A stretch of 19,536 nt of DNA from an uncultured archaeon (GTDB lineage Archaea > Asgardarchaeota > Thorarchaeia > Thorarchaeales > Thorarchaeaceae), in NCBI GenBank assembly GCA_964458565.1, contig CAYWJO010000056.1, positions 1 to 19,536 on the forward strand. The letters run 5' to 3'. The position numbers and the translations under genes were made by a program. Shown here in pieces: positions 2,095-10,036 of the stretch (position 1 is the first letter of the stretch; every line of letters starts with the position of its first letter). Below the pieces are notes generated by a model. That model did no database searches, had not been told where the DNA came from, and was given only the letters and a program-made list of their open reading frames with translations.

Positions 2095-2979
2095 TTAAAA
2101 AAACTCTTCTAATCCTGCTTGAGCTGTTATGGAAACCTCTGGATCATCGATGATATTATATCCTCTCAGTTTTTTCATATCGATTGCAAATACTGATTCA
2201 GAAATTCCTATTAATAGAATCGGTCCCTTGACTCCAATGATATCACCTCGAATCTGCATGCCATTGATTTGTTTCCTCTTCGTAAGATCTTGCAGTGGAT
2301 TATTCAATGCTTCAATACCATAATACCCCCCTAGGGGCTCAACATTGATTTTATCCAATTCTAAGGAATCTACTAATTTTCCGGTGATATCACGAATCAT
2401 AGATTCAGCTTCTTCAGTATTCAACACATGTTGCAGAGATGTGATCTTTCTACTTGTTCTGATGGTCTTTGTAATCTCTTCATTTTTTCCAAATCCATTT
2501 TCAACCAGCCGTGCCTTATCTCCTCCTTTAACTATCTCTAATATTGCACCGTAATCAGCTCCCTGTTCTATCCATCTAGTTCTCACACGACCTAAAGTGG
2601 AAACTCCTACTTTTAGATGGGTTCCTATTAGAACAATATAAACTGCATAATCCTTCTCTCTACATTTTTGTAGTTTATCTGGTGTAGCAAAGCATTCTAC
2701 TCCTGTACATTTAGCACAAGCGTCACTATAATCAGTAGCTGCACAAGGTCCGCATTGAGTTCGTCCCATTGGGATTATCATCTCTTCCGGGCAGGGATTT
2801 CGTTTACCCGTCTCATCTCTAAATCCCACACATCTAGATGGTCCCTCAACTCTCCAAGTTATCTGGTCTTGGTGATTCAATTGCTGAACCATTAATTGCG
2901 TCGTTTGCTGATTCCATGCAACCATATGTGGTTTTATTCTTTTATCATTTGAACGCCATGCAATATCAACAAACAACAT
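2095..2979 (-). CDS. DUF2797-like protein with Cys-rich Zn-binding region and C-terminal PCNA-interacting (PIP) motif
   Basis: Contains CVG...CP...QCGPC...CAKC...C...C, then YAVYIV...KVGVS...TRWIEQGADYG and GDIIGVKGPIL, typical of DUF2797. Ends QAGLEEFF*. Start moved from 3039 to ATG 2979, which has a GAGGA RBS upstream and removes a 50-bp overlap with the upstream gene. Confidence 0.75.
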   Translation of the reverse strand: MLFVDIAWRSNDKRIKPHMVAWNQQTTQLMVQQLNHQDQITWRVEGPSRCVGFRDETGKRNPCPEEMIIPMGRTQCGPCAATDYSDACAKCTGVECFATPDKLQKCREKDYAVYIVLIGTHLKVGVSTLGRVRTRWIEQGADYGAILEIVKGGDKARLVENGFGKNEEITKTIRTSRKITSLQHVLNTEEAESMIRDITGKLVDSLELDKINVEPLGGYYGIEALNNPLQDLTKRKQINGMQIRGDIIGVKGPILLIGISESVFAIDMKKLRGYNIIDDPEVSITAQAGLEEFF

Positions 2980-2989
2980 TTGTCTATCC

Positions 2990-4078
2990 TCAGAATAATA
3001 ATCGTGCACCTCGACCTTGTCCCATCCATTTAACACCATGGATATTTAGTTCCTCATCACATTTTGGGCAATGGCCTTTATCATTAAGATTGTTTTTCTT
3101 CATGTAAACGGAGTATCTCTCAATAGCCTTGAAACCACAGCGTGGACAATATGTGTTCTCGTAATCATGCCCAGCTATATTCCCTGAGTATACAAAAACG
3201 AGACCTTCATCCTTGCAGATTTTGATGTGTTTCTCCAAAGTTTCAGCATTTGTACGTGGTAGATTTGTTAGTTTATACATTGGGCTGAACGCTGTGATGT
3301 GTACAGGAGTCTTCTCACCAAGATTCTGAACTATCCAATGTGCCATTTCCTTGGTGTCCTGTTCATGATCACCAATTTGAGGTACTATCAAGTTCGTGAT
3401 TTCAATAAAGATCCCTTTTTCCTTCATCTCTAAGAGCGATGTATATATCGGTTTGACCTTCGGAACATCCATATAGGTCTTGTAGAATTCTTTGTTTCCA
3501 CTACCCTTGAAATCAACCGTAGCTGCATCTAGATATGGTGAAATGTACTCGATAGCTTCTGGGGTCATATAACCATTTGTTACAAAGGTATTATACATCC
3601 CTTGTGAGTGTGCATGCATCGCAGTATCATGTGCAATCTCCATGAAAATCGTTGGCTCAGTGTAAGTATAACTGATGCCATCACATTCGTACTTTTTTGC
3701 TATGTCTACAATATCTTCTGGTGAGAGTGTCCTACCTTCAGGTTTCGTTCGCTGTGATGAATGATAATTAAGACAGAACTGACATCTGAAATTGCAGGAT
3801 GACGTACTTATTGAGAATGCACTAGAACCTGGAGCAAAGTGAAAGAGAGGCTTCTTCTCAATTGGGTCAGGTGCCATGCCATCAATCAACCCATATACCG
3901 TTGTAAAGAGCGTATCCCCTCTATTTGTGCGTACTCTGCAGAATCCTGATTCACCATCCTCAATCAAGCATCGTCGAGCACATAGATCGCATCTGACTCC
4001 ATTTTTCAACTTCGTATATAGGACTGCCTCTTTCATCGTGATGTCAAATATTCCATCTCTTATTCCTGTTTTGGTCAT
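2990..4078 (-). CDS. amrS: AmmeMemoRadiSam-type radical SAM enzyme (PFL-activating-enzyme-like)
   Basis: Motifs VRCDLCARRC...GFCRVR, DPIEKKPLFHF, CNFRCQFC (CxxxCxxC), YTYTEPT, VTNGY, YSGN, TYCPRCG...CPKC. Start is probably ATG 4078 or ATG 4036 (MKEAVLY). The 4195 start overlaps the divergent gene. Confidence 0.9.
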   Translation of the reverse strand: MTKTGIRDGIFDITMKEAVLYTKLKNGVRCDLCARRCLIEDGESGFCRVRTNRGDTLFTTVYGLIDGMAPDPIEKKPLFHFAPGSSAFSISTSSCNFRCQFCLNYHSSQRTKPEGRTLSPEDIVDIAKKYECDGISYTYTEPTIFMEIAHDTAMHAHSQGMYNTFVTNGYMTPEAIEYISPYLDAATVDFKGSGNKEFYKTYMDVPKVKPIYTSLLEMKEKGIFIEITNLIVPQIGDHEQDTKEMAHWIVQNLGEKTPVHITAFSPMYKLTNLPRTNAETLEKHIKICKDEGLVFVYSGNIAGHDYENTYCPRCGFKAIERYSVYMKKNNLNDKGHCPKCDEELNIHGVKWMGQGRGARLLF

Positions 4079-4147
4079 ATAATTTTGAGTCCTATTAAAA
4101 TGAGACATTGTTAAAAGGATAGAATGTATAGTATACCTGATTTTGCC

Positions 4148-4582
4148 ATGTCTAGCTCTGAGAATCTTGATAGACTCAAACAACTGATGGAGCAAGTTGC
4201 AGGGAAGAATATCCCATTACTCCAGCGTTGTTCAGAGGCTAAGATTTTAGCAGTTCAAGACTTTGATAGTGCTATTGATAAATATCTCAAAATAGCATCT
4301 GAGATTCTGACTAGGTCTGATGAGGTTGATTCCAGAGTTGACAGAGAGTTATCAGAGGTTAAAACTGCTCTGAGTTCTGATGTATTAAATCAATCATTTA
4401 TTCATGCATTGAAAGGTCTCAAGAGTAGTTATTACGAATCTGTACTAAAACCTGCAGTGAGTCAATATCTACGAGATGTTTCAAAGTCTGCATCATCAAT
4501 TGAAAACATATATGAACGAGCTGTAGAGTTCGATAAATTACTTGAAGTTGTGGAATTCTTCCATAAGGTCAATCAATCATAG
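4148..4582 (+). CDS. Hypothetical all-alpha-helical protein (~144 aa)
   Basis: Sole substantial ORF filling the space between two minus-strand genes, with amphipathic helical periodicity and no recognisable motif. Start ATG 4148 (or 4124). Confidence 0.7.
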   Translation: MSSSENLDRLKQLMEQVAGKNIPLLQRCSEAKILAVQDFDSAIDKYLKIASEILTRSDEVDSRVDRELSEVKTALSSDVLNQSFIHALKGLKSSYYESVLKPAVSQYLRDVSKSASSIENIYERAVEFDKLLEVVEFFHKVNQS

Positions 4583-4594
4583 ACTATCTTCTTC

Positions 4595-6037
4595 TTATTC
4601 AATATTCCTCATTGTGCGAAGTTTATCTCCATCTACAACCATTGCTATTCCTAACTCCACGAACTCTTCCACCCACTTACTGACCACTGCTGGTGACACT
4701 CCCAATGATTTTCCAATCTCACGAATTGAGATATCCTTATTCTCCTCAGCCATAAGAAATGCTTTTGTCTTCTCGGTATTTCTCATCAGTGCCATGTAAT
4801 CGTCAATAGTTTCCTGCGTCGTTTGAGCTAGGATTCGAGCTGTTTCGTAATCCTTTGTTAGTCTATCAACACTCGCCTTAGCTCTTTCAAGCTCTGACTT
4901 TGTCGTTTCTAGTTCACGAATTCTATCACCTGACTCGTAAGAACGAATTCTTGCCCGAAGGTCATCCATTTCCTCAAGACGCTTATCGAATGATGCTATT
5001 TCCTCTTCTAGCTGCTTTTGTTTTGCCACATAATCATGAATCTGGATGTCCTTCTTTGCTATGTCACTGCCAAGTTGTCGAATTCTCCCTTCAGCATCAT
5101 CTGCACGTTTCATCTCAGCCTCCATCTTATCTTTTATCACATCTCTGGAGGCTTCTGTTGCCTTGAGTGATTGTCTAAGTTCTGCTAATTCTCCTTTATC
5201 TATCGCAGGGGTTGATTTCAATTCACCGATTGTGTCTTCAAGTGTTTCATTTCGAGACTTTAATTCACCAATGGTTTGTTGAAGGGTTTCTAATTCAGAG
5301 TCTCTAGTCATTAATTTTTGATCTGCAGTACGAAGGTCTCGGACTAATTCTTCAATTTGGCGTTCCATGGTCTTCATCTTTTCAGAAACATCCTTCGGAA
5401 TCTCGACCCTTGGTTTCATTGTGAGTTCTTTCGTAAGGAATTCCATCTCTGTTAGTGCTCTTTGGCTGAAATCATCAAAGCTTCCCTTCAAAACAGTGAA
5501 ATCTTCAATGGTTGAATTCATGCTAGTTTTAAGTGCCTCAGTGATATCTCTGACTTTTTCAAGAATGGGTGCAGACATCCCAGTGGTAAGTGTTTCTTCA
5601 ACTTCTCCAAACTCTTCTTCAACAATTGGCTTCACATCATTCTCAACATATGTGATTTGAAGATTGGTCTTTGCTCTTCTCTTAGATCTCCCAATAATAC
5701 TTGTGCGCATGTTTACAAGATTGCCCTTCATACCTACCAGAAAAGATAGAACCACTGGAACAAGGTCTCGTTCAATTCTGTCAATATTCCTTTCAAAATC
5801 TATAACTTGCTTTTCTAGTTGACGAAGACTTTCACGAAGTCTTTCCGTACTTTTTTCGATTTCAAATCTGCGTTTCACTTGTTCAGCTGATTGCACCTTC
5901 AAAATATCCTTCGATATTCTTCCGGACTCAACAAGTTCCTTCTTCATATCATCATCTACACCAAGTTCTGAAAGCAGGTCGTCTACGACCTTTGCTTCAT
6001 CATCTTTCAAATCTCTATCTTTGGGATCTTCAGTCAT
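4595..6037 (-). CDS. Long coiled-coil protein with C-terminal winged helix-turn-helix domain
   Basis: 480 aa, E/K/R/L-rich heptads over most of residues ~50-420. C-terminus KAFLMAEENKDISIREIGKSLGVSPAVVSKWVEEFVELGIAMV is a wHTH pattern. GTGAGG RBS upstream. No Walker A/B motif. Confidence 0.8.
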   Translation of the reverse strand: MTEDPKDRDLKDDEAKVVDDLLSELGVDDDMKKELVESGRISKDILKVQSAEQVKRRFEIEKSTERLRESLRQLEKQVIDFERNIDRIERDLVPVVLSFLVGMKGNLVNMRTSIIGRSKRRAKTNLQITYVENDVKPIVEEEFGEVEETLTTGMSAPILEKVRDITEALKTSMNSTIEDFTVLKGSFDDFSQRALTEMEFLTKELTMKPRVEIPKDVSEKMKTMERQIEELVRDLRTADQKLMTRDSELETLQQTIGELKSRNETLEDTIGELKSTPAIDKGELAELRQSLKATEASRDVIKDKMEAEMKRADDAEGRIRQLGSDIAKKDIQIHDYVAKQKQLEEEIASFDKRLEEMDDLRARIRSYESGDRIRELETTKSELERAKASVDRLTKDYETARILAQTTQETIDDYMALMRNTEKTKAFLMAEENKDISIREIGKSLGVSPAVVSKWVEEFVELGIAMVVDGDKLRTMRNIE

Positions 6038-6151: not shown

Positions 6152-6988
6152 ATGCGGCTATCTATCGAGATGCAGGCTAACATCTACAATCGGGGAACAT
6201 CCCGACTACGTGATGGGAAGATGATGTGGCATCTCCTTACAGATATGGATAATCAATTTGTTCGTACGATTGATGTATTTCCCCCTGCAAAGGTTACAGA
6301 GAAGGCAGAAGGAAATATGATGGCAATAATTAAGATTCCAGAGATAAATCCTGGAGAGTCCTTCTCTCCTTCAGTTGTTCTAAGAATAGATACTACAACA
6401 CGTGACTGGCTACTTGAACCCCAAATGATACCTCAAGATATAATGAATCAGGCAAGAGGCATGTATTGTTCAATGCAGAAATATTGGGAAATTCAAGATA
6501 CAGAAATTCAGGAACTCTCTCAGCGAATTGCAGAACGAACAGGAAATGATGAGTCTTACTGTAGACTTGCGTACCAGACTGTTCGTAAGCAGATTAAACT
6601 AAAGACCCATCTTGATGAACGTAAAGGTGCTTCGAGAGCTATCAGGGAGAAGGAAGGCGATTGTGATGAACATGCAGACCTCTTTATAGCACTAGCAAGA
6701 ACAGCTGATATTCCAGCAAGACGAATAGTTGGTCATATTTATCGTGCTGAGAAGGATCCAGAACCCCATGCGTGGGCTGAAGTATTTTTGGAGAATCGTG
6801 GTTGGCTACCCGTTGATCCTGCCTTGGGAAATTTTGGATTCATGAATGAAGTCTATTTCTCAAGAATCCGTGAAGGACTTGTATCAGAAAGACCTACAAT
6901 ATCTCTCAAATGGAGTGGTATCGCATCAATGTCACCAAAGATAGAAGAAGAAGTGCGAATGAATGTTGTGACGAACGGGTCTAATTGA
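6152..6988 (+). CDS. Transglutaminase-like superfamily cysteine enzyme (cytoplasmic)
   Basis: Catalytic triad motifs GDCDEHADLF (Cys), PHAWAEV (His) and WLPVDP (Asp), plus IPARRIVG. GTGAGGT RBS. No signal peptide or TM segment visible. Confidence 0.9.
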   Translation: MRLSIEMQANIYNRGTSRLRDGKMMWHLLTDMDNQFVRTIDVFPPAKVTEKAEGNMMAIIKIPEINPGESFSPSVVLRIDTTTRDWLLEPQMIPQDIMNQARGMYCSMQKYWEIQDTEIQELSQRIAERTGNDESYCRLAYQTVRKQIKLKTHLDERKGASRAIREKEGDCDEHADLFIALARTADIPARRIVGHIYRAEKDPEPHAWAEVFLENRGWLPVDPALGNFGFMNEVYFSRIREGLVSERPTISLKWSGIASMSPKIEEEVRMNVVTNGSN

Positions 6989-7739
6989 AATCTTCCATAA
7001 ATTCTGTTGCAAGTAAGGTTACAAAGAGTTCAGCCCCAAAAGTCCAGCAGGAATGCGTATCGAATATGCAGCATCTAATATTTGGAAGTAGTGGCGCTTC
7101 CAATGCTGAACGAAGTGTACTCGCCAAATGGTGTGTTATCATTTCTCCATAAGCAGATACCTGTGGAAGTGAATCCGTGAATCTCTTATTCGTTGAGTCG
7201 AGTGGACCTGGCTTATAATCACATACATGAATCGTATCATCAATCCATCTAATTAAATCGATATGACCAGTGGTGTGATATCTCTCTGACCACACAGGTA
7301 CTTCAATAGCAATTGTATGTTGATCATGTTCTATAAACTCAGTCAATATACTATGGTCTGAGCAATACGAATTATCGTTTCGCATCTTATGAAAATCACG
7401 AATCATCTCAATAATCGGATCATCAATTGATTTTGAGATTTTGCCTGATCTGGTAAATTTCTTTCTTAATCCTACTCTCGATGCCTTTGACATCTTTTTT
7501 AATTTCAATCGTGAAGCTCTTGTATAGAATGGATCTGTAAATGGTGCCTCAGGGATTTTCCCTTGTTGTATCGTAACAAGATGTGCCCAGAGCGAAGCCA
7601 AATCACCTTTAGTATTGCCCCACTGTAAATGATTCGTCTTATTCCACTGAAATTGATAGGCTATCTTTCCATGCTGGAAATCTCTACGGACGATATCATC
7701 GGAGCGTTGATTCATGTTGCTAGCAACATGGATGCTCAA
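6981..7739 (-). CDS. PD-(D/E)XK (RecB-type) nuclease family protein
   Basis: IEVPVW...TGHIDLI...VCDYKPG...QVSAYG correspond to the E / G-x-I-D / D-Y-K / Q-xxx-Y motifs. Start TTG 7739 or ATG 7715. Confidence 0.85.
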   Translation of the reverse strand: MSIHVASNMNQRSDDIVRRDFQHGKIAYQFQWNKTNHLQWGNTKGDLASLWAHLVTIQQGKIPEAPFTDPFYTRASRLKLKKMSKASRVGLRKKFTRSGKISKSIDDPIIEMIRDFHKMRNDNSYCSDHSILTEFIEHDQHTIAIEVPVWSERYHTTGHIDLIRWIDDTIHVCDYKPGPLDSTNKRFTDSLPQVSAYGEMITHHLASTLRSALEAPLLPNIRCCIFDTHSCWTFGAELFVTLLATEFMEDFN

Positions 7740-7784: not shown

Positions 7785-8081
7785 TTGACTTATGCATTCG
7801 TTGTTTTCTATAGATATAAGCTAATGAGTCCCGAAGAATCTGAAAGAGCGCGTGATTTTTGGCGAAAATACAGCGTAGAGGATTGGCCAAAAACCCTCAG
7901 TATCGTTGGCGACTACAGACACGCTTGGGGTACAGAATGGAGTGGTTTTCTACTTATTGAAACTGAATCCCCTCAAACCTTTTTTGAATTCTGGCCAATT
8001 TTCCGAGATAAAACACGGTGGTATATCGAAAACACTCAAACCGTTATTGGGTTGAAACGAAAAGCTACTGAATGGATGTAA
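7785..8081 (+). CDS. Small alpha/beta protein, probably dimeric alpha-beta-barrel (GYD/darcynin/chlorite-dismutase-like) fold
   Basis: 98 aa with TTG start after GGTGG. Shows a beta-alpha-beta-beta-alpha-beta pattern (YAFVVFYRY / helix / SIVGDY / SGFLLIETE / helix / TQTVIG) and is unusually aromatic-rich. Confidence 0.55.
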   Translation: MTYAFVVFYRYKLMSPEESERARDFWRKYSVEDWPKTLSIVGDYRHAWGTEWSGFLLIETESPQTFFEFWPIFRDKTRWYIENTQTVIGLKRKATEWM

Positions 8082-8084
8082 TCA

Positions 8085-8124
8085 TAAAGAAAGGGACCGG
8101 GGTGGGCCACAAGGCCATCCCCTT
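8085..8124 (-). terminator. GC-rich hairpin between convergent genes, putative terminator
   Basis: GGGGTGGGCC-ACAA-GGCCATCCCC at 8099-8122 forms an imperfect stem. On the minus strand it lies just after the TAG of the 8125..8907 gene and is followed by CCCTTTCTTT. Confidence 0.5.
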
Positions 8125-8907
8125 CTATGGCGATTTCTTAACATCTGGTGCATTATCTTCCATGAATTCTACAATCCAACTCAGATCTTTTTCATAAGGT
8201 CCTTCTCCACCACGATAAAGAAGCAGAGAACCCACATCCGCATTAACAACGGTTTTGTAAACTCCACTTGGATACTTGAATGATGCCCGGAATCTATTGA
8301 TTTTTCCCTGATATTTCCTCGTGTACAAACCAATTTCATCTTCAGTTTTGATGTCTTCTCCACCAAATTCGACTCTACTAAGGGTGGAGTATCTCTCTTT
8401 TGCACCTTCTTTTTTCGTAGGATCTGACTTTGTAAGACCTGTTAGAGTTACTACACTCACAGATTCAGCTAAATCGTATAGTTTCTTGGTGCCACCATTC
8501 AAATTGAGTGGTTCTAGCTGCCCTCCAGAGATTTCTTCTATTGCACTTTTTACTCTACCCGCTACGCGACCAGAGGCTCTAACTTCAATCGTTCCACGAT
8601 CCATTTTAATGAATACAATTCCTTTGTCTACGGATATTTGATATCCTGGTGTGAGGCCGCTATCAGGATTATATGTTAAATATGGCATATTAAAGCTGGC
8701 AACAAACTCAGCTCTGATTGTCTTCACTTTGACCTTCACATCTGTGAAGCCTTCTGTAGTTTCATTTTTCTTCTTTGGACTATACGGTTTCTCTTTCATT
8801 GCAGCAGCTAACTTAGCTGGAGTGATTGTGAAATCTTTCATCCTGAAAAGTTTCACAGCGAGAACCATACCTCTGTCGACAACTGGGTTTCCAAATTTTT
8901 TACTCAT
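8125..8907 (-). CDS. Basic hypothetical protein, putative RdgC-like fold DNA-binding protein
   Basis: 260 aa, Lys-rich, with a strong GAGGTGA RBS (8914-8920). Three segments resemble RdgC in order (see findings). The CDS is secure; the fold call is tentative. Confidence 0.55.
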   Translation of the reverse strand: MSKKFGNPVVDRGMVLAVKLFRMKDFTITPAKLAAAMKEKPYSPKKKNETTEGFTDVKVKVKTIRAEFVASFNMPYLTYNPDSGLTPGYQISVDKGIVFIKMDRGTIEVRASGRVAGRVKSAIEEISGGQLEPLNLNGGTKKLYDLAESVSVVTLTGLTKSDPTKKEGAKERYSTLSRVEFGGEDIKTEDEIGLYTRKYQGKINRFRASFKYPSGVYKTVVNADVGSLLLYRGGEGPYEKDLSWIVEFMEDNAPDVKKSP

Positions 8908-8948
8908 TATGGCTCACCTCGGTTTCCTATGGAAATTTGTACTCGAAC

Positions 8949-8960
8949 TAATATAAAGAA
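8949..8960 (-). promoter_or_regulatory. Putative TATA box (TTTATAT) for the 8125..8907 gene
   Basis: Minus strand reads TTCTTTATATTA, with TTTATAT at 8957-8951, about 45 nt upstream of the ATG. This leaves room for a short leader with the GAGGTGA RBS. Confidence 0.5.
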
Positions 8961-9107: not shown

Positions 9108-9557
9108 CTAATCAATGAGCTTGTGGATCATATCATGTACTAATGGTTTGTCGGTCATGAACGGCTCAAAGGTCTTAGTCTGTGCTTCCTTGATGCATTT
9201 CTCCAAATTTGAAATCTCGCGACACCAAATCAGATGTCCTCTTCGACTCATTTCACCAATCAATTGTGCTTGATGTCCTTCCATAAGTGTAGTATTTTCT
9301 ACGATAACAAGTTTCAAGCCATGAGTGACACATTCCATAGTGGTACCCGCACCTCCAGTACTTACTATCACATCTGCTTTCTCGTATGCAGTCTTTAGTG
9401 ATCTGATAAATCTGAAATATCGGAAGTTTTTAGGAATATATTCTCCACGACCAATCTGGGCTACTACTTGTTCGGTAATGCGTCCCGTAGCAACGAGCCT
9501 ATCTATCTCCTGAATAATAGGGTCAAAGTGCGCGGTTCCAACTGTGATAAATATCAA
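9108..9557 (-). CDS. alg13: Alg13-like UDP-N-acetylglucosamine transferase catalytic subunit (GT28 C-terminal domain)
   Basis: Motifs MIFITVGTAHFD, QIG, ADVIVSTGGAGT and VENTTLMEGHQ. TTG start overlaps the upstream TGA (TTGA), indicating translational coupling. Confidence 0.85.
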   Translation of the reverse strand: MIFITVGTAHFDPIIQEIDRLVATGRITEQVVAQIGRGEYIPKNFRYFRFIRSLKTAYEKADVIVSTGGAGTTMECVTHGLKLVIVENTTLMEGHQAQLIGEMSRRGHLIWCREISNLEKCIKEAQTKTFEPFMTDKPLVHDMIHKLID

Positions 9558-10036
9558 AGTAGTTGTCCTCCGTATATTGCGCCTTGTGTCTTCTTTGCTA
9601 ATTCAGGCCACTGTACGACATAAAGGGTGGTCTTTCCAATTAGGAGACGGCCTGTTATTGAGAGGGACTCTACTCTTGACATGCTCTCAATAAACACAGT
9701 TTTGATTCTAAGAATTCTTGCGGCATAAAAAATAGGCACCGTGAGACCCGTCCCACAACTAATTACGACTTTGGGTTTGAACATCATAAAATAGACAAAA
9801 GACAGTATGAACGTCATAAGCGTTCTAAGAATTGACATGATTCTCGAATCTTGCGGTAATAATCTCGGTGGTATCACAGGAGCTATTTTTCCAGGGATTT
9901 GTATTTTCTTGGGAGTCAATGGGTCAAGAATTCCAATCATGTAGAGGTATTGATATCGATCTCCTAGAAGATTAACTAATGCGAATGTCTGTGCTGTATG
10001 ACCTCCTCGTCCAAGGACGACAGCGACTCGTTTCAA
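9554..10036 (-). CDS. alg14: Alg14-like oligosaccharide biosynthesis subunit
   Basis: Motifs VVLGRGGHT, KPKVVISCGTG, FIESMSRVESLSITGRLL and VQWPELA. Directly upstream of the Alg13-like gene. Confidence 0.88.
   Translation of the reverse strand: MKRVAVVLGRGGHTAQTFALVNLLGDRYQYLYMIGILDPLTPKKIQIPGKIAPVIPPRLLPQDSRIMSILRTLMTFILSFVYFMMFKPKVVISCGTGLTVPIFYAARILRIKTVFIESMSRVESLSITGRLLIGKTTLYVVQWPELAKKTQGAIYGGQLL

Follow-up and report, generated by a model that had tools for sequence, protein, structure and literature searches.

A basic RdgC-fold protein of Thorarchaeia, a predicted homodimer from a second Asgard lineage of the RdgC/CENP-L/N superfamily

The window analyzed here, the whole 19.5-kb contig CAYWJO010000056.1 from an Asgard genome that is 93% complete and 3.7 Mb in size, encodes on the minus strand at positions 8125-8907 a basic protein (P0001) that, judging from its predicted structure, belongs to the fold superfamily holding RdgC, Iml3/CENP-L and CENP-N. 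RdgC is a recombination-associated and nucleoid-associated protein of Proteobacteria, whereas CENP-L/Iml3 and CENP-N/Chl4 are members of the inner-kinetochore CCAN (constitutive centromere-associated network). The gene is real and conserved, and it represents a small, previously unnamed family, hereafter T-type, whose members come from Thorarchaeia, Jordarchaeia and another Asgard family. The protein is predicted to form a homodimer like that of RdgC, and as such it probably serves as a DNA clamp without sequence specificity or as a nucleoid-associated protein. The coding sequence and the parts of the protein are as follows:

8125..8907 (minus): coding sequence, with the stop codon, of P0001, the basic 260-amino-acid protein of the RdgC fold (open reading frame list and translation, homolog clusters, single genomic copy)
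8866..8907 (minus): N-terminal basic tail, residues 1-14 (family alignment; model confidence is lower here)
8497..8865 (minus): predicted TBP-like center domain, residues 15-137, equivalent to RdgC 1-73 + 121-167 and, in CENP-L/N, to the LNHD
8605..8721 (minus): long beta-hairpin, residues 63-101 (model secondary structure; gap in hhalign where RdgC has its tip; contacts 90:90 and 76 with 92 in the dimer prediction)
8137..8496 (minus): predicted base (dimerization) domain, residues 138-257 (the structural alignment to RdgC reaches residue 257)
8392..8430 (minus): Lys-rich loop insertion, residues ~160-172 (in this copy only, 0 of 29 aligned relatives; model confidence ~60)
8350..8388 (minus): strand and flanking positions (residues 174-186), for which antiparallel pairing with the corresponding strand of a second subunit is predicted (contacts 180:180, 179:179 and 177:182)

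The AlphaFold2 model of the monomer, obtained with a 30-sequence alignment as input, has a predicted local distance difference test score (pLDDT) of 90.4 and a predicted template modeling score of 0.86. The center and base domain fold of RdgC extends across the whole chain of this model, and the same two domains match the LNHD and dimerization-domain fold of CENP-L/N. The top Foldseek match is E. coli RdgC (E-value 2.3e-7, probability 1.00), followed by CENP-L (5e-4), Iml3 (2e-3) and lambda RexA (4e-3); a second structural comparison gave 12.6 for P. aeruginosa RdgC and up to 9.7 for CENP-L. A previous reading of the DNA sequence alone had assigned the RdgC fold by eye, and this call was correct; the structure prediction and Foldseek search by which that reading was to be checked yielded significant likeness to RdgC and a weaker one to CENP-L/Iml3. 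The only structural matches that cover both domains at full length are RdgC, CENP-L, Iml3 and CENP-N, all of which are DNA-binding proteins, and every other match spans a single TBP-like domain of about 76 residues. The helical tip domain that RdgC carries as an insertion in its center domain, after strand beta4 and before strand beta5, is absent. The model shows instead a beta-hairpin at 63-80/84-101, with no helices there; its distal part (~74-95) occupies the place of the tip, and the hairpins of the two subunits are predicted to touch each other on the two-fold axis.

At the sequence level, the link between the family and RdgC is weak but specific. The RdgC profile used for this comparison comprised 13 diverse sequences, namely E. 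coli K-12 RdgC and the products of plasmid-borne rdgC genes at 28-62% identity. In hhalign, family residues 18-137 align with RdgC 7-169, with a P-value of 4e-4 at full length and of 4.1e-5 (probability 70%) for the center domains alone, for which the reversed null is 0.55; the reversed-profile nulls against RdgC range from 0.38 to 0.55. This alignment leaves the RdgC tip (75-120) as an insertion opposite residues 75-82; in RdgC, the helical tip domain consists of residues 74-120 (PMC1885664). Because the model shows the turn of the hairpin at this place, the earlier remark that the helical hairpin of RdgC is replaced by a short beta segment turns out to be right. Three RdgC-like segments had been pointed out in the same reading, of which the first two are identical to the hhalign alignment, whereas the third lacks sequence support (P 0.35-0.48) and is consistent solely with the beta-alpha-beta-beta-beta-alpha order and with the full-length structural alignment. 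Searches of Pfam, NCBIfam, PDB sequences, PADLOC and PHROGs with either the single protein or the family profile gave no match. No Pfam model, including RdgC (PF04381), CENP-L (PF13092) and CENP-N (PF05238), matches the protein or any of the 30 family members at E-values up to 10. In none of 400 Asgard genomes does PF04381 score above its curated cut-off, with the E. coli control detected.

The prediction of a complex of two copies reached a score of 0.66, compared to 0.00 for the best of three controls. Of 30 proteins whose solved structure is a pair of one chain, 20 attain a score of this size, as does 1 of 23 single-chain structures. The score may reflect likeness to, or memory of, known structures because similar complexes (RdgC and Iml3-Chl4) have already been solved. 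At least 97% of the contacts agree between runs, and the partner pLDDT is at least 83. The contacts with the lowest predicted error (180:180, 179:179, 177:182) correspond to antiparallel self-pairing of strand 176-186, and a second set (90:90, 76 with 92) lies in the hairpin. In RdgC, both interfaces are isologous and share one two-fold axis: B is formed by self-pairing of strand beta9, which merges both base sheets, and in A the tips of the two subunits touch (PMC1885664). The predicted homodimer thus joins through an antiparallel base-domain strand equivalent to interface B and, with the hairpin contact matching interface A, would reproduce the RdgC topology with the hairpin in place of the tip. 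In this copy, the Lys-rich insertion (~11-13 residues) immediately precedes the predicted dimer strand.

The family is highly basic. The 260-amino-acid protein contains 30 K and 13 R compared to 14 D and 19 E (33 acidic residues) and has an isoelectric point of 9.4, in agreement with the description of a Lys-rich protein in the sequence-only reading. Among the 30 members in the alignment, 28 have an isoelectric point of 9.1-10, and 22 alignment columns contain at least 70% K/R. In the 30-member alignment, the N-terminal tails of the relatives are rich in Lys, Ser and Thr and vary in length, with 3-12 K+R within the first 25 residues of full-length members. This family-wide charge suggests nucleic-acid binding, possibly in a mode somewhat different from that of RdgC, which is net acidic with a basic pore (PMC1885664).

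Compared to RdgC (PF04381; PDB 2OWL, 2OWY), the Asgard protein is ~45 residues shorter, its predicted hairpin takes the place of the helical tip, it is basic overall and carries a Lys-rich N-tail, and its host is an archaeon. The likeness to CENP-L/Iml3 and CENP-N/Chl4 (PF13092, PF05238; PDB 7XHN_L, 7PKN_L, 4IT3, 6EQT) is lower than that to RdgC. The Asgard protein is encoded by a single-copy gene, is a predicted homodimer and shows no sequence match to these proteins. The N-terminal pyrin-type domain of CENP-N is missing, the chain consisting of a short basic tail followed by the center domain. RdgC-like proteins with low identity to RdgC have been described in a histone operon in Halobacteria and Bacillus (Schwab et al., 2024; PMC11390915); these contain two extra small terminal domains and are encoded in a three-gene operon, histone / RdgC-like / four-domain membrane protein (PMC11390915). 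Compared by description, they share with the Asgard protein the RdgC fold and the low identity to RdgC, whereas the Asgard gene is monocistronic and located beside Alg13/Alg14, and no histone family was detected among its neighbors (Alg14, Alg13, the 98-amino-acid protein and the PD-(D/E)XK-like protein). Lambda RexA (PDB 8TWQ) combines RdgC-like globular and dimerization domains with non-specific DNA binding and has no helical tip (Adams et al., 2024). Links between RexA, RdgC, Iml3 and Chl4 have been drawn (Adams et al., 2024), CENP-LN has been related to RdgC with a homodimeric ancestor inferred (Pesenti et al., 2022), and CENP-L/N have been classed as TBP-like proteins without sequence relatives (Tromer et al., 2019).

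In the model, the protein has the core of RdgC with its two domains, the TBP-like center and the base. Two copies most likely would join where the first strand of each base domain pairs antiparallel with its counterpart, so that the sheets merge as in interface B of RdgC. A second contact would probably form between the two long beta-hairpins that replace the helical tip, and the resulting clamp could be closed or almost so. The most likely activity of such a protein would be to bind double-stranded DNA irrespective of sequence, as a clamp of the nucleoid that could also limit the access of the recombinase RadA, parallel to RdgC and RecA. The data show the gene, its conservation, the fold and the sequence link to RdgC; the homodimer is a prediction, and ring closure, DNA binding and any role in recombination or chromatin are inferred. 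The sequence link, the predicted dimer, the charge and the genomic behavior of the gene (one copy, own expression signals, stable position in Thorarchaeia genomes) speak for this interpretation. Several observations weigh against it. By hhalign, the base domain gives no sequence signal against RdgC (P 0.35-0.48, no better than the nulls). Conservation is not enriched at the predicted interfaces (0.575 for the hairpin and 0.651 for the strand, compared to 0.629 for the rest), and the tip of the hairpin is variable, with insertions and deletions; both weaken the case for a conserved tip contact. The family is basic all over, in contrast to the net acidic RdgC, so that the binding mode or the ligand, such as RNA, may differ. 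Finally, no recombination gene is found as an operon partner.

Alternatively, the protein might bind RNA or another ligand via its TBP-like sheets and resemble RdgC in architecture only. We consider this unlikely given that the full-length two-domain matches are exclusively DNA-binding proteins and that the predicted dimer shows the strand pairing of RdgC. The protein might also be a RexA-like component of phage exclusion or defense, but the structural match to RexA is weak, there is no RexB-like neighbor and no prophage or defense-island context, and the gene is present in a single copy amid a stable chromosomal housekeeping neighborhood; with a phage collection (tblastn), a PADLOC scan and a PHROGs scan all devoid of matches, this function is hardly credible. 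A DNA clamp thus described remains the interpretation that we favor.

The sequence-only reading had made the interest of the protein conditional on an Asgard host, which the host indeed is, and had called for a phyletic map. Homologs form 38 clusters at 90% identity, and the named ones, identified from protein records only, are nearly all from Thorarchaeota; the more distant members bear the names Jordarchaeia/Freyarchaeota. When 1.84 billion representatives were searched exhaustively with phmmer, 18 matches were obtained, 12 of them below 1e-10, and a profile search of 5.8 billion clusters yielded only 41. The T-type profile matches 87 of the 400 Asgard genomes and is restricted to some Asgard families: 67 of 85 genomes in f1 (the family of the window), 1 of 1 in f2, 11 of 12 in f13, 6 of 6 in f16 and 1 of 31 in f8. 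It has no match in the remaining Asgard families of this set, including f22 (0 of 135). Family f16 can be identified as Jordarchaeia from the 84-100% identity of its copies to named proteins. Nearly all Thorarchaeia genomes have one T-type match, and the genome of the window itself contains one copy of the gene. The single genome of the sister family f2 (G311) carries two diverged T-type copies (L039 and L040, ~30% identical), and no O-type copy (see below) was detected in it with the G304 query.

A second Asgard family with the same fold, denoted O-type, is exemplified by P0192, an open reading frame of 282 amino acids in the closed 1.4-Mb genome G304 (G304:C1:21372-22217, equivalent to L058:5373-6218 on the plus strand), where it is flanked by genes of the E2F and PDCD5 families. 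O-type relatives are present in 103 of the 400 Asgard genomes, including f8 (29/31), f10 (10/12), f11 (21/22), f13 (11/12), f15 (5/5), f16 (6/6), f28 (3/3), f29 (4/4) and f30 (4/5). They are found in 0 of 85 genomes of the Thorarchaeia family, and a 25-sequence O-type profile likewise finds none in 86 genomes of that family. In f13 and f16, the two types coexist in the same genomes, including the closed, single-contig genome G117, where they lie at 1.02 Mb (C1:1016739-1017449) and 2.66 Mb (C1:2663992-2664636). T-type and O-type are distinct lineages and not orthologs. Both are Asgard families of ~250-320 amino acids that are mostly single-copy and share the fold superfamily. In hhalign, the alignment between the two (P-value 5e-4) spans 79-80 columns and takes in both the beta-beta-alpha core and the dimer strand, and O-type aligns with RdgC at 2-3e-3, the nulls of these comparisons being 0.1 or more. 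The three families thus align pairwise at the same beta-beta-alpha core, which supports a single superfamily.

The resemblance pattern is reciprocal, with T-type being RdgC-like and O-type, which also aligns with the N-terminus of CENP-N/Chl4, being CENP-L/N-like. The suggestion made from sequence that the T-type protein could be a relative of CENP-L/N is therefore only partly supported: the fold superfamily is shared, whereas the better archaeal counterpart of CENP-L/N, and hence the better candidate forerunner, is O-type. A heterodimer of two paralogs, as in CENP-L/N, does not fit the T-type protein, given one copy in its own genome, no O-type in the 86 Thorarchaeia-family genomes and a predicted homodimer. 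The Pfam CENP-L model (PF13092) finds nothing in the genome of the window and only short, stop-ridden noise across the 400 Asgard genomes. It is improbable that T-type itself is the archaeal counterpart or forerunner of the kinetochore CENP-L/CENP-N.

The origin of T-type could be either an old duplication within Asgard archaea or the transfer of a bacterial rdgC. Under the latter scenario, an ancestor of Thorarchaeia and Jordarchaeia would have acquired rdgC, which subsequently diverged, retaining the fold and probably the activity, and the family would have no bearing on the archaeal ancestry of kinetochore proteins. Such a transfer is possible but doubtful: there is no bacterial member or intermediate among the 1.84 billion representatives and 5.8 billion clusters, the Pfam RdgC model fails on all members, the helical tip is absent, the dimer strand aligns with O-type rather than with RdgC, and synteny is stable within Thorarchaeia genomes. 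A specific form of the duplication scenario posits that an RdgC/CENP-LN clamp was duplicated within Asgard archaea into a short T-type without an N-terminal domain and a longer O-type with one, and that where both were kept (Jordarchaeia and f13) they could pair via the shared dimer strand. We assign this scenario only a slight chance; if true, it would provide a prokaryotic precedent for the CENP-L/CENP-N heterodimer.

Structural work on the human kinetochore has led to the proposal that CENP-L and CENP-N go back to a relative of bacterial RdgC, a homodimeric DNA-binding protein that became duplicated (PMC9235857). A literature search found no archaeal intermediate of CENP-L/N and no Asgard protein of the RdgC fold. 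The T-type family adds a second, distinct archaeal lineage of the RdgC/CENP-L/N fold, the most RdgC-like in Asgard archaea so far and the only one of the two families found in Thorarchaeia, coexisting with O-type in some genomes. It corrects an overly direct kinetochore reading, may serve as an internal outgroup to root O-type against RdgC, and offers a small, well-folded, single-gene target for the study of RdgC-type DNA binding, archaeal chromatin organization or RadA restraint. As regards the O-type context, P0192 is arranged head-to-head with the E2F/DP-family gene (~700 bp between the divergent genes) and adjoins the PDCD5-family gene. Neither type was detected in family f21 (0 of 14 for each), which includes closed genomes of 4.4 and 6.0 Mb; in f22, where T-type has no match, the single O-type match among 135 genomes is spurious. 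These two families may have either a third, undetected form or none.

The RdgC-like gene of the window, an open reading frame with an ATG start and a TAG stop, is monocistronic with its own expression signals:

8949..8957 (minus): TATA-box-like TTTATATTA, ~46 nt upstream of the ATG (sequence reading; consensus match only)
8914..8920 (minus): Shine-Dalgarno-like GAGGTGA, 6 nt before the ATG (sequence reading; consensus match only)
8084..8126 (minus): hairpin and T-rich run after the stop, common to the convergent 98-amino-acid gene (RNA fold -19.9 kcal/mol, z -2.1; consensus match only)

All three agree, as consensus matches, with the TATA box, ribosome-binding site and terminator that the sequence-only reading had described. 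A synteny block consisting of Alg14, Alg13, the RdgC-like gene, the 98-amino-acid gene, the PD-(D/E)XK-like gene, a transglutaminase and a coiled-coil helix-turn-helix (HTH) protein is kept in Thorarchaeia, whereas in Jordarchaeia the neighbors of the RdgC-like gene differ and the block is dissolved. Since the gene is also monocistronic, the arrangement is best read as lineage synteny and not as an operon, and functional linkage through the neighbors was rejected on these grounds.

Several genes in the vicinity nevertheless are worth describing. Directly upstream (9108-10036, minus strand) is a split Alg14/Alg13-type UDP-N-acetylglucosamine (UDP-GlcNAc) transferase pair, and this adjacency holds even beside a family member with 37% identity (L031), where the genes are divergent. 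The convergent gene at 7785-8081 (plus strand) encodes the conserved 98-amino-acid protein, which belongs to no known family and occupies the same place in the three Thorarchaeia loci examined. Beyond it, at 6981-7739 (minus strand), is a gene for a 252-amino-acid protein with PHROG exonuclease matches (1e-5), the relatives of which show weak PD-(D/E)XK (PDDEXK_1) matches; it is found near the RdgC-like gene in three Thorarchaeia loci, with the convergent gene between them. The 480-amino-acid protein encoded at 4595-6037 (minus strand), which is part of the Thorarchaeia block, shows weak matches of the long coiled-coil type (MPS2, syntaxin N) and contains a C-terminal HTH. Finally, at 2095-4195 (minus strand), the gene for a radical SAM enzyme is followed by one for a DUF2797 protein, and this pair is conserved in Thorarchaeia relatives.
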